NCBI RefSeq assembly: GCF_041146345.1
Contig: NW_027191417.1
Coordinates: 744,001-808,000, forward strand
DNA length: 64,000 nt
Origin: Neodothiora populina
Lineage: Eukaryota
Direction: 5' to 3'
Positions 12,274 through 17,193 of this stretch are shown here, in pieces (position 1 is the stretch's first letter; each line of letters begins with the position of its first letter). The notes beneath the pieces are model-generated. The model saw only the letters and a program-made list of their open reading frames with translations. It was not told the origin of the DNA and ran no database searches. The position numbers and the translations under genes were made by a program.

Positions 12274-12589
12274 TATCTCCGCAAGTGACTGAGCAATAGT
12301 TGAGGCATATAACAGTGCTGTATAAGGTAACTTCTAGACATGGAGTCTGGGGAAAGGTTTGGATCTATGGGTTACGAATCCGCACAGACCAGCGCATGGA
12401 GATACATGACTCAATGTAACTCTACAGTGCCTTCCTTACTTTCCAGAAGTGTTACTATGCCTTACCATGCCTTACTTCGTCCAAGTTTCACCACTTTCTT
12501 CGACTAGTCCATGTCCCAGAAAGCTAGTTATTTATCGCTTAAACTCTTGAGAGCAAGTGAATGGCGCATGAGTGTTCTGCAACTATGTT

Positions 12590-15078
12590 ATGATGACTGA
12601 AGACACAGTCATGCCCAAGCGGCAGCACATGAAGGCCAGGAGTACAACATCAGATATCGCGAGTGAGACTCTAGAATCGCCCACAAAACCACGACTTAGC
12701 AGGACTCAGAGTAAACGGACATTGGAGCAGTCCACTTCTGATGAGGCGACAGCGGCTTTCGTGAGGCGTACATTGTGTGGCCATCAGATTCGTTCGGGAC
12801 CTGGTGTTGATGGCACGAAAGCTGTAGCCAACACACCTTCATTGGAAGAAACTCTCCCTCCACTGACCAGCTCTAATGCGGTGGACTTGCAACTCTACGC
12901 TCTCATCGCCATTATCATCAAGGACTTCGTCCAAACATGGTACTCGAAGATTTCGCCGGACCAGCAATTTACCGATAAAGTCCTTCAGATTATTGCGCAT
13001 TGTACTCGCGCCTTAGAGGAGCGCATCCGGCACATTGATATAGAAGCCTTATTACTAGACGAATTGCCTGCGCTTGTAGATGCACATGTTACCGGTACAC
13101 TTCTCTTGCTCGATTTGCAGAGACGATCAATATCTAATGTCTCACAGCGTTTCGCACTGCCATTGGCAATTCATATACGGCATCTCTAGGTGTCAATGCA
13201 CGTGAGGTCTATCATTCGATACACCCACATCCTGCGTTATCACCTGTGCCGCAAGATACCAACCCTGTCTCTGCCATCAGACTTGCTGAGAACGAGATGA
13301 TGTGGAGGCATTTGCTCGTCCAAGCTGCGCTATCTCAACTTCTGCCACCCGAGGAGATAGAGAATCCGTGTCTGAGTCTAGCATTGACTGACATTTTGTC
13401 CGAGGTAATCATTGGCAATGCCGTTTGTGGTAAACTGTGCGAAGGCTGGTTTATATGGGAGACTACGACGAAGCTGATTAACCTTGTACGCCCCGGAACC
13501 GATGTTATTGACAAACCCGAGAAGACTATGCCGACACCCAGCCGCTTGGAGCAATTCGGTCTTGTGCCAGATGCTAAGGCCGAGGACACGGCGCCGACAG
13601 ATGCTCACAAAGTGGGTGCTGTAGAAATGATTTGCATGGTCCTATGGAATATCGTTCAATCTGTTGCCATACTAGCTCTGGCCACCCGCGATTTACTTAT
13701 CTCTTGGTCAAACTCTGTCAGCCTGCCTGCCCGACAGAGCGCCGAGTCTCTGAAGCATGCTCCGAACGCACCGCCCGACGTGCCATATACTGATAAGATG
13801 CAGCAAGACGAATGCACTAAGCCCGTTGCAAAACGCCCTGTTCTTAGCATGTCTGCATGGAGTTGTTCTTTTCACATACTATCTCTCGATTTGCGGATGC
13901 CATGGATCAGTGCAATCTGTAACTTTTTACAGTGGTTTTTAATATATGGTCCTGGAAAGGTGGGCTGCACAAATTCCAGATTAGACAGGTGAGTTGTGCG
14001 CTAGCAGCATTTTCCATTTCACAATCCAGCCCTGCGGCACCCCTCATTCATGCGACACCCCAAAGACGCAGGACCGACCAACAGGAAGCATTTCTCTGAA
14101 CCCATTCCCATAACTGGACGAAGATGTAAACGCCACCGACTGTATGTCTCGATGATCCCGCATGGCCAAACATTCACATGATTTAGCCAGAAAGCCAATC
14201 ACCTCTTAATCCACCGACAACTTCACCGTCGGGAAACATGGCGTTTGTAGCTTGGCGATATTGCGGCTCGCCCACGCGGCTTACTGTGTCATTTGGGAAT
14301 GCGTTGACTGCATACAACATGGCACCATGCTATCTAACTCTCGCGTGGGCCTGAAACCGTGCCTTCGCTATGCATGATATGGGGACGTGCTGATGATCAA
14401 CGGCCTTCTACTCAAGCCGGCACCATGTCCGGTGCGAGACCCTAAAGGACTCAAGCCTTGCTGCTCGTGGTCAATCCCCTCGCCTGCCGTGAGAGTCGCC
14501 AACCCCTCATTCGGCGCATGCCGTTCGAGCCCCCTCGGTGTCCATCGTGTCGATGGACCTCAGTCAGTTCGATGCAGGGGGTCTGAGCCCTGTCATCAGC
14601 GGACCAGATGCATACCAATCGTTATCTTTCTTACATGTCAAATTGAATATCATGCGATGACCGTGACTTGCAGATTCGGCTGACATGAACCACTAGGCTC
14701 ATATCTCACCACCTGTTCGACGTGATCCTTACACCAGATCGTGTACCTTCACTCCTGCTCGCGGTTCGAGTCAATCTATTTCCCAACAATACTCTCGGCC
14801 AAGGCCGACTGCCACCCACGAATGAAGAGGTCCTCGAGATCAAACGTCGATGCGCATCCGCCATAGACAAGTCTCTTCCAAGCATTCTACGGTCTAGCTT
14901 ATTCTTGTCGTCACAAGATGAAGCTTCAATCCAGCAGCAGATTGAAGAGATGCTGGACGTCTTCGGCGATCCATACATGAACAAGCATCTCATGTTTGCC
15001 ATTACAGATTTGCTGTTCTCGAGGCTCTTCCCCGAGATACAGGAGGAAAGCATTGCATCTCTGCTTGATGGAATGTAA
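12590..15078 (+). CDS. PXA-domain protein with a sorting-nexin C-terminal-like last exon; 3 exons
   Basis: LPPLTSSNAVDLQLYALIAIIIKDFVQTWYSKI, HPHPAL, LLPPEEIENPC, GKLCEGWFIWE; last exon VFGDPYMNKHLMFAITDLLFSRLFPE; introns 13095-13147 and 13989-14696 give an unbroken frame. Confidence 0.87.
13989..14696 (+). ncRNA. Candidate structured intronic RNA filling the 708-nt intron of the PXA gene (identity unknown)
   Basis: Many nested perfect helices read by eye (see findings); box C-like TGATGA 14391-14396 and box D-like CTGA 14583-14586; no convincing ORF. Confidence 0.55.
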
Positions 15079-15454
15079 CATCCATTATTGCTATGAGGTG
15101 TTTACGTAAAGGGTAAAGACTGGTCTTTCGCCCACCTGATGAAATTGTTTCCCTAGCTACTTGATTAGCACTGCTACTACTAAATAATGAATACCCTCCG
15201 ATGATCAATTTATCCAGTCCTCCTCCAGAAACGGCTTATATATCAATGCTGCTTGCGGGACAGAAGAAACAGAAGAAGCAGATATACCAATGCTTGTGCG
15301 CCATGCCATGACCGCGTGAGCGAATCCGTGTAATTCATCTTGCCGTCCCGTCATTACCGTAAATTGTTCCATACCACATATAATGTCGTTCCACAGAAGA
15401 AGAAGAAAAGAGTGAACCACCTCGCGGCTGGTCCATATCACTCCCATTCTCTAA

Positions 15455-17193
15455 TCATCTGTAGCGTTCCTTTAGTTTCTCCATGAATCGTCCCATCATA
15501 GCAGTCTCCTCCATGCTCAGGTTCTCATCTGTGCCTCTGGGCTGATTCGCAAAGTACTGCCAGACGACTTTCAGTGCCTGTCTCGCATCCTCCTGACTCG
15601 GGCCTTGACCCCCTGCTCCTTCCCGAGCCGCCACAAATGCATCATGCGACAGGCTTGGAGGAGTCGATAGATCCAGGGCCGAGGACGACGATGGCGGCGA
15701 ACGCATCGCCTGCGAATGACTTGAGCTGACGTGATGCTGCTGCTGTTGCTGTTGTTGAGATTGTTGCATCACGTTCATGTGCATGTCAGTACCGGGAGAT
15801 TCGCCCATGTGTTCGTCTATACTGTCTAAAGCCTGCGCGATACCATCCATAGAAGCGCCCAGAACCTCGTTGTCCATGAAATCTGATCCGCTACCGGCCA
15901 GACCCGCAGATGGCGACGATAGATCTTGGTAGATCATGGGGAATGTTTGACTTCGTGGACGCTGCATTCCGTCACCTGTCGTCGTGGGTGACATGGCTGT
16001 TTTGTCAATTTGACCGAAGAATGACTCCGACGTGGAGAAGAAAGGGGACGACGGGCTCATTAGAGATTTGGGAGAGATCGATGCTGATGCTTCGGTCACG
16101 TGGAGGGAGCTCCCACTCAAGGTCGTCGTGAGATCGCTGAAGCCATCGGATACCTCGGCGTTCAAACTCTCGTCGCTGCGTACACCGCGCAGACCACTGG
16201 GGGATGGAGAAGCATCATTTCGCATTGAACCTGGAGAAATCCCGCTAGGTGAATGATGAGATGAGGTCGACTTCTTCCCCGTGTGCGGATTATCTGATAT
16301 TGACATTTCTCTGCTTGGTCTGCGGTCAGGAATATTGTGTTTCCGCTTGAAAGACGTCAACCAAGCAGGATTACTAGCAGGATTGACCATGGCCGAGTCA
16401 GGTCCAGACACAGAAGAGAAGTACTGGGCTTTCTCACGAATAGCCTCGTCTGATAATATGGTGCCCTTCTTCTGCTCCTTGGTGACCCAACTCGAAAGTG
16501 TTCTCTCGATATCGGGAGATCGTCCTTTCAGACGTCTTTCTGGAGAGCGAACCACTGCTTCGGTGTACTTCTGCAGATACTTCTCCTTTTGACGCAGGAC
16601 CTTGGAAACGGTGCTTTAGCAATCAGTAAAGGTGGTTCGCTATCACGTTGAAACGGATCTCCTTAGCCTACCTTCTCTCGACGCCGAACATTGCTGCGAA
16701 TGGTTAGCATACTCTGGCATAGTGATGAACTAATGACTCAAGACTAACAGCCGATCTCATTCTGCTTAGCGCTTGGATTTTGCTCATGATACTCGCACAT
16801 CTTCCGCCTTTCATCATCTGTCAAAGTCCTGCGCGGTGTAGACCCAGACCGCGTTGACGAGGCAGAGATTGGTGTGAGCAATGGCGTCGGCGAGGTGGTA
16901 CCTAGTTGTCCCTGGGGCATGACTTGAGGATAGTAAGCTGGTACAGGTTGTGTCGATTGACTGCTGAGCATGCTTGGCCACTGTGGTAGGACCAGAGGAT
17001 GTAATGAGGGGTGATTCGGTCGTTGGTAGGACCTTGTGTCGCCCGCCATCTGGGAAGTATGCCAGACAAATCCCGGATACTCGGCTGCAGGCGTTCCATG
17101 GTGTGAGTGCGGATACTGGTGCTGCCCACCCATAGGCATCTGTGCCCCATCAAAGGTAGGATTTACGTTTTGGTTCGGGTCGTCCTCGTCCAT
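15455..17193 (-). CDS. CENP-B/Tc5-type helix-turn-helix DNA-binding protein; 3 exons
   Basis: RRTLTDDERRKMCEYHEQNPSAKQNEIGS|MFGVERS|TVSKVLRQKEKYL, then PDIERTLSSWV..LSDEAIREKA..WLTSFKRKHNI; 22-nt microexon 16693-16672. Confidence 0.87.

Follow-up and report, generated by a model that had tools for sequence, protein, structure and literature searches.

The 64,000-nt stretch of Neodothiora populina DNA analysed here (NCBI RefSeq assembly GCF_041146345.1, contig NW_027191417.1, forward strand, positions 744,001 to 808,000), referred to below as the window, carries a PXA-domain gene composed of three exons, whose second intron reaches 708 nt (Table 1). When joined, the three exons reproduce exactly the protein P0001, which is 568 aa long and named "hypothetical protein AAFC00_004663 [Neodothiora populina]" by its source, so the public gene model already has 13989-14696 as an intron. 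A protein search with the translation of exon 2 gave the same protein at 100% identity. Pfam recognizes PXA alone in P0001, at residues 88-270, and the precomputed Pfam lists of its orthologues contain PXA, to which three long ones add PF20179 and PF13824, and nothing else. An earlier note on this DNA, made from the sequence alone, had described the last exon as nexin-C-like. This designation was not borne out, as a Nexin_C match is absent and residues 443-568 (14698-15075) match no Pfam family even at E ≤ 10.

Table 1. Features of the PXA-domain gene and its second intron, followed by orthologous loci with the length of the intron at the same position or with the match by which the locus was named
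Feature or locus	Position in window	Strand	Description
Exon 1, PXA-domain gene	12611..13094	+	start codon to first donor; covered by X2 contig
Intron 1	13095..13147	+	53 nt, ordinary short intron, 41.5% GC; GT..AG, absent from X2 contig
Exon 2	13148..13988	+	ends with ...NSRLD and the AG of a split Arg codon
Intron 2	13989..14696	+	708 nt, phase 2, GTGAGT...GCTGAC...TAG, 53.5% GC
Possible element vestige	14157..14202	+	CGCAT 14159-14163, 10 nt, TCACATGA 14174-14181, CCAAT 14195-14199
184-nt GC-rich block	14429..14612	+	identical to part of a foreign 362-nt contig
Perfect 8-bp hairpin	14540..14558	+	GTCCATCG-TGT-CGATGGAC; in the 184-nt block and in the sole low-z 120-nt window; absent from the helices listed earlier
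Branch-point-like GCTGAC	14679..14684	+	12 nt upstream of acceptor TAG 14694-14696
Exon 3	14697..15078	+	last base of Arg codon, 126 codons, stop; conserved C-terminal domain without Pfam name
L041-43, L055			intron of 270 nt
L053			intron of 271 nt
L051			intron of 441 nt
L054			intron of 602 nt; Geoglossum, 87%
16 loci			intron of 922-1024 nt
L048			intron of 1411 nt; Paecilomyces-like, 63%
L049			intron of 1473 nt; Penicillium-like, 74%
L004/5/25/26			Alternaria, up to 100%
L034/35			Pyrenophora, 87-93%
L023			Parastagonospora, 89%
L037			Paraphoma, 83%
L001/L002			Didymellaceae, 77-80%
L003			Penicillium canescens-like, 91%
L044			Polytolypa-like, 58%
L046			Sclerotinia-like, 49%

Removal of the second intron is visible in a 4058-nt contig of run X2, which matches 12491-13093, 13147-13986 and 14695-15500 of the window and skips 53 nt and 708 nt, both bounded by GT..AG. 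Run X2 and the genome run X1 share one sample; although labelled "DNA?", X2 behaves like a set of assembled transcripts. None of its contigs lies over 14012-14653, which is uninformative either way. The orthologous proteins are also uninterrupted at the junction, where ...TNSRLDR is followed by L(I/L)SH... with no additional residues. Since the contig skips the 708 nt and the orthologous proteins are continuous, the intron is real and removed. Indeed, with its GT donor, AG acceptor, branch point, removal at the RNA level and restored frame, 13989-14696 is a U2-type intron of ordinary mechanism, spliced out of the mRNA. The splice signals read in the earlier note (AG/GTGAGT at 13989, GCTGAC at 14679-14684, TAG ending at 14696) and the length of 708 nt were all confirmed, and each of the 15 strings quoted there lies exactly where it was placed. 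Reading on into the intron also gives GAC AGG TGA, the immediate stop that had been proposed for a retained form. The sole other intron measured in the window is the 53-nt intron 1.

For comparison with other fungi, 55 contigs were fetched from metagenome assemblies on the basis of an alignment of 11 orthologous proteins, and their junctions were located by tblastn with the 62 residues before and the 126 residues after it, then read. The junction is reached by 39 of the 55 loci, and in 38 of these 39 an intron begins with GT at the identical place in the codon (phase 2, following ...LD). At the 39th, L002, exon 2 runs directly into exon 3 and intron 1 is absent too, so this locus represents the spliced form. 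All of the 25 complete introns fall between 270 and 1473 nt, and six further contigs stop 491-984 nt into the intron, short of exon 3. Intron 1, for its part, measures about 49-166 nt in 46 of 51 loci and is missing in five cDNA-like contigs. The GC content of the long intron is 54-57% in 15 of the 16 loci measured and 46% in L046. The loci were named by similarity only, through a second protein search and tblastn against named hits, and, going by these names, Dothideomycetes, Eurotiomycetes, and Leotiomycetes- and Geoglossomycetes-like fungi all have the long intron at this site. Judged from these loci, the length of the intron is inherited: at the shared position it is always long, while the other intron of the gene is short. 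In lineages with introns almost always of 50-100 nt, one intron of one gene has been kept at 270-1473 nt across several classes, and its maintenance by distant fungi at the exact same spot hints at an old role, still unexplained.

A short or non-conserved intron in relatives had been named in advance as evidence against function. The intron is long in relatives; between its sequence in the window and theirs, blastn gave no alignable similarity at any of the 55 loci. Two side observations concern the same junction. The contigs L002, L010, L016, L045 and L047, which lack intron 1 (and L002 the long intron too), resemble assembled transcripts, though they come from a metagenome collection. In addition, gene models break at this place: P0003 and P0004 end with ...LDR, P0007 (Metarhizium album) contains about 110 extra residues and one Trichoderma model has four more.

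Among the relatives, the 5' part of the intron contains a small element of about 46 nt, in which a 5-bp stem, CGCAU/AUGYG, surrounds a hairpin NNUC-ACUU-GANN. The corresponding pattern CGCAT-N10-TCA[CT]N[CT]GA is present in 25 loci and in the window, each time within this intron, on the + strand and 61-240 nt downstream of the donor; a search of both strands of 634,862 nt gave no other occurrence. The element reaches Eurotiales-, Onygenales-, Helotiales- and Geoglossum-like loci. Among 20 distinct sequences, the pair 14:25, which flanks the invariant TC-ACTT-GA, is A-U in 9, G-C in 6, G-U in 4 and of another kind in 1; the next pair of the hairpin is G-C in 12, G-U in 3, A-U in 2 and of another kind in 3. 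The covariation score amounts to 0.269 versus 0.192±0.030 in shuffles, of which 1 of 500 reaches this value, and 0.002-0.163 in slid controls. Tolerance of G-U with almost no A-C favours an RNA read from the sense strand. In 13 lineages, a complement of CGCAU, AUGYG, lies 30-50 nt downstream of it and provides the other strand of the outer stem. Pairing in this stem amounts to 95%, G-U and U-G variants occurring without any double change, and a variable piece separates the hairpin from the 3' strand. Furthermore, 8 lineages have C[CG]AAT downstream of TCAYNYGA, at 34-51 nt from CGCAT, and the window has it at +36.

A covariance model composed of the stem and the hairpin (R1, 9 modelled pairs) also recognized loci outside its seed. 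L046 scored 19 bits (E 0.012) and L033, cut by the contig end, 27 bits, whereas L054 (13.9 bits, E 0.28) and L044 (13.5 bits, E 0.37) scored lower. In the clade whose introns measure 270-441 nt (L041:5390-5659, L053:1243-1513 and L051:1506-1946, among others), there is no CGCAT...TCACTTGA arrangement, and three or four tandem-like GTGACTT/GTGAC repeats are present instead.

In Pleosporales-like lineages, conservation extends well beyond this element. The first 600 nt of the intron show an identity of 0.59-0.73 between lineages, compared to 0.59-0.72 for exon 2 and an equal value for exon 3; in the close pair L004/L034, the intron block and exon 2 reach 0.76 and 0.79. On the other hand, the remaining 300-400 nt are at the background of 0.48-0.58 in the same comparisons. 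A coding or nested-gene reading of this block was ruled out. Indeed, three-base periodicity is lacking (mismatch phase ratio of 1.10 in the block versus 1.39 in the exon control), multiples of three make up 62 of 367 pairwise indels in the block versus 67 of 71 in the exon, and the open reading frames (ORFs) of the block lie in differing frames between lineages. A non-coding intron segment of about 600 nt as conserved as the exons in Alternaria, Pyrenophora, Parastagonospora and their relatives is unexpected to a fungal genomicist. No known RNA family was recognized in it: Rfam gave no hit at gathering score in 14 related loci and none at E ≤ 10 in the L004 intron. A consensus two-hairpin H/ACA fold is absent from 12 aligned introns, and the 3' part of the relatives' introns contains no conserved block.

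Several minor observations concern the same block. A long-range rod between its segments A and B in Pleosporales has 8 pairs with double changes versus 4.0±1.3 in shuffles, a comparison that is circular, the structure having been derived from the same alignment. In L004:5347-5990 and the other Pleosporales-like loci, GTRAGTYGCGA near the donor is able to pair with GCGAYATCGC some 640 nt further on, so that the entire conserved block would be looped out; two of these pairs show compensatory changes. A portion containing GGTTGATCTGCC may resemble the 5' end of small-subunit rRNA; such a match was roughly judged not rare and was dropped.

The window itself may keep a weak, possibly decayed copy of the small element, as its sequence suggests (possible vestige in Table 1). 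The spacing of its parts is correct, and a relaxed pattern identifies this place alone within the window. The relaxation was made after seeing the window, and under it 141 of 200,000 shuffled introns contain the pattern, a number that falls to 10 when the CCAAT part is included. The vestige lies outside every helix listed in the earlier note.

These helices had been the basis for the proposal of a densely folded RNA, with the intron "tiled with perfect helices" and a 3' domain closed by two of them. We counted perfect inverted repeats in the intron and in 300 shuffles preserving dinucleotides. At a minimum of 6 nt, 47 are observed versus 50.2±6.9 expected (208 of 300 shuffles reach the observed number), at 7 nt 10 versus 13.1 (259 of 300), at 8 nt 6 versus 3.5 (38 of 300) and at 9 nt 2 versus 0.83 (64 of 300). 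Folded as a whole, the intron has a minimum free energy of -211.2 kcal/mol versus -213.5±6.3 kcal/mol in 20 shuffles, with a z-score of +0.37 on the + strand and, with as many shuffles, +0.76 on the - strand. Over twenty overlapping 120-nt windows of the intron the mean z is +0.18, with a single low value of -2.9 at 14499-14618, the minimum in 15 exon control windows being -2.57. Thus, the folding z-score that had been suggested as a check is at background, the helices are as many as chance gives, and the two closing helices are neither beyond chance nor accompanied by a thermodynamic signal. The densely folded intronic RNA, as first proposed, is rejected, an outcome worth recording.

Searches for known families in the window's intron were equally negative. 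With Rfam 15 at E ≤ 10, positions 13700-15000 gave three chance-level hits only (15-16 bits versus gathering scores of 45-54), and positions 14400-14640 one chance-level hit only. This covariance-model search agrees with the earlier judgement by eye that no TPP (thiamine pyrophosphate) riboswitch, RNase P/MRP, SRP or U3 is present, as no family fits. ARAGORN found no tRNA in the intron, and its two longest ORFs (101 and 63 aa) have no Pfam match. No H/ACA model matches in the window except for a 15.5-bit chance hit on the opposite strand, and no C/D family matches there in this general family search, made with no dedicated snoRNA (small nucleolar RNA) finder.

Our preferred, still tentative, explanation is that a cis-acting element of the pre-mRNA governs the handling of this intron; for the window we consider it a little short of probable. 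The small sense-strand element near the donor would act in cis on the pre-mRNA, most simply through control of splicing versus read-in, or through early termination. Splicing control is the simplest reading since the element lies near the donor, pairs on the sense strand and is accompanied by a stop at the first intron codon. Indeed, GTRAGT in phase 2 always reads AGG or AAG and then TGA or TAA, so an unspliced form would end the protein right after its PXA part. The outcome could be a choice between a full-length and a PXA-only protein. Since the window has only a weak, partly decayed copy, this control may be reduced in its species. The cis-element idea was already one of two offered in the earlier note. 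Its core, that the intron is more than a spacer, gains support from the shared position and length and from the block and element of the relatives, whereas the helices invoked for it provide none. Taken as a whole, the wider proposal that the PXA gene of Pezizomycotina possesses a length-conserved long intron with an undescribed element switching between full-length and PXA-only forms, the window being a diverged but working member, seems unlikely. If there is such a switch of splicing or expression, it would represent a new and experimentally tractable intron-based regulation in filamentous fungi, and it would account for the frequent truncation or mis-joining of this gene by gene callers exactly at the junction.

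A number of results weigh against control by a cis-acting element. No retained-intron or truncated transcript was observed, the data being one spliced contig. Among the relatives, R1 misses the Penicillium-like L003 at E ≤ 1, and the element is absent from six complete introns (L041-43, L055, L051 and L053; 270-441 nt) belonging to the clade nearest the window by local protein identity. Moreover, the stem and the hairpin were chosen by eye on the same sequences, so the pair counts lean towards structure. The first 660 nt of the intron show no thermodynamic signal in four lineages (folding z of +0.99, +0.27, +0.56 and -1.54), and for 12 sequences RNAalifold arrives at no more than -26.8 kcal/mol, the covariation term being +0.81. 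The window's copy has a loop ACAU, a U-U mismatch and no 3' strand AUGYG at the expected distance, and the strict pattern derived from relatives alone fails on it. A hidden Markov model (HMM) built without the window ranks 14157-14202 fourth window-wide (E=2.7), while R1 gives the same place 8.2 bits (E=6.3, rank 11 of 15), which is not significant window-wide; rescaled to the 708-nt intron and one strand, the HMM and R1 values become roughly 0.015-0.035. Finally, nhmmer with a 650-column profile of the relatives finds no match in the window even at E ≤ 5000, although this is weak evidence.

The 708 nt could instead be a pure relic, neutral filler that is long only because an ancestral length has not yet shrunk. 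We regard this as rather unlikely, though the likeliest of the alternatives. It agrees with the lack of any structure, family or coding signal in the window's intron, with the lack of alignable similarity to the 55 loci, with an element that is marginally detectable and with a transcript contig, the only one seen, that is cleanly spliced. Nevertheless, a length of at least 270 nt in 25 of 25 complete orthologous introns, beside a neighbour of about 49-166 nt, is hard to square with drift alone, and neither the GC content (53.5% versus 41.5% in intron 1 and 49.6% in exons) nor a motif of the right spacing and strand confined to this intron is in line with neutral filler. Conservation could also operate at the level of DNA, through transcription-factor sites of an intronic enhancer or internal promoter, for instance an E-box-like TCACNTGA beside a CCAAT/CGAAT box, motifs which we take to be factor sites. 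The conservation is mainly of primary sequence with no folding signal, the TCAYNYGA-C[CG]AAT arrangement recurs in 8 lineages and the window, and the intron is GC-rich like non-intronic DNA. We nevertheless find such a module improbable: the CGAAT/CCAAT box falls on the very letters of the 3' strand (AAUGYG) of the stem complementary to CGCAU, and the flanks of TCA...TGA covary between A-U and G-C, with four G-U and one non-pair in 20, an asymmetry that favours a sense-strand RNA over a symmetric DNA site.

Two further explanations draw on the 184-nt block of the intron, its most GC-rich part (62%). With 0 differences, this block matches the middle part of a 362-nt contig of depth 131.6 from run X4, which belongs to another organism and study; the identity ends abruptly on both sides, the 152-nt and 26-nt flanks of that contig being unlike the window and, as loose ends, absent from it. 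Three further runs of the same study share a similar small fraction of words. A stable non-coding RNA (ncRNA), snoRNA-like or other, released from the excised intron could explain the high depth in runs of another organism as well as the one local folding z of -2.9, and fungal introns do host snoRNAs. A Pezizomycotina-wide intronic H/ACA snoRNA in a "vacuolar sorting protein" gene is reported in PMC8216456. This hosted RNA, the other proposal of the earlier note, found no support and appears very improbable: Rfam recognizes nothing in the window's intron or, as stated above, in the relatives, a consensus two-hairpin fold is lacking, and the relatives have no conserved 3' block. A box C/D reading found no support either: by reading, GCTGATGA at 14389 (CUGAUGA at 14390) carries C in place of the R that should precede UGAUGA, the nearest downstream CUGA, at 14583, has flanks that do not pair with the 5' flank, and no terminal stem was seen. 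The block could rather be captured or mobile DNA that lengthened the intron in this lineage, as its exact, abruptly bounded identity to foreign sequence, shared words in four runs and GC richness might suggest. We rate this as the least probable of the explanations considered. The isolate's own run has one contig over the intron, at uniform depth, so the piece is single copy in the genome. Neither a terminal inverted repeat nor a target duplication was seen by reading, and no copy was found elsewhere in the window, in the 55 loci or, by blastn, in plasmids; an exact search with a 27-mer of the block was negative in JGI metagenome contigs and in prokaryote genomes. The X4 assembly is also very fragmented (longest contig 911 nt), making a chimera or an amplicon artefact possible, and the block folds no better than shuffles (z of -0.39 on the + and -0.56 on the - strand). 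It may be a mobile or captured piece, an ultraconserved core or an assembly artefact.

Among known systems, fungal TPP-riboswitch introns control alternative splicing by long-distance pairing. Those of the NMT1/THI4 type, in line with the isoform control proposed in the earlier note, resemble the present case in that the intron would carry the choice between a productive and a prematurely stopped mRNA. They differ in that here no TPP model matches, the host is not a thiamine gene, and neither an aptamer-like fold nor alternative splice forms were observed. Introner-like elements of Dothideomycetes are likewise longer than usual and are said to fold stably, and they are multi-copy, near-identical and recently gained. 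The intron studied here shares with them its unusual length in a Dothideomycete, whereas it is single copy in the isolate's run with no second copy in the window, occupies an ancient shared position and folds like shuffles. Neither of these two kinds, nor any Rfam family, includes the window's intron.

A closer parallel is provided by conserved intronic RNA structures of fungal genes, described by Gao, Jones and Rivas 2021 (PMC8216456) for introns of metacaspase 1B, lysyl-tRNA synthetase and RPS13, and by the intronic motifs of Li and Breaker 2017 (PMC5640933). As in these cases, a short element lies in the spliceosomal intron of one gene, across classes of Pezizomycotina, in single copy, on the sense strand and with a presumed cis role. 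On the other hand, the present element is tiny (9 modelled pairs), has modest covariation and goes with a conserved very long intron, about 600 nt of which are under unstructured constraint in Pleosporales, and it has no Rfam 15 match. Candidate 04 of PMC8216456, given there as an intronic H/ACA snoRNA of a "vacuolar sorting protein" gene throughout Pezizomycotina, is similar in its distribution and in always lying within an intron of a single gene of trafficking type; in the PXA family, some members are named "sorting nexin". It differs in its two-hairpin H/ACA architecture, which is seen neither in the window nor in the relatives, where no H/ACA family matches either. The words "PXA" and "nexin" are absent from the main texts of PMC5640933 and PMC8216456, and the papers found on the PXA domain and introns in fungi do not deal with this intron in their titles and abstracts. 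Within these sources, we could not find a description of the conserved long intron with its small RNA element.

Downstream of the PXA-domain gene and convergent with it, a long ORF of 386 aa, rich in Ser and Gln, lies on the - strand at 15455-16615, and the X2 contig continues across the intergenic gap. Finally, run X5, from a third study and probably of DNA, contains two short contigs identical to window positions 13013-13225 and 14781-14958, one of which includes intron 1. The X5 sample therefore contains, at low depth, this organism or one nearly identical to it.

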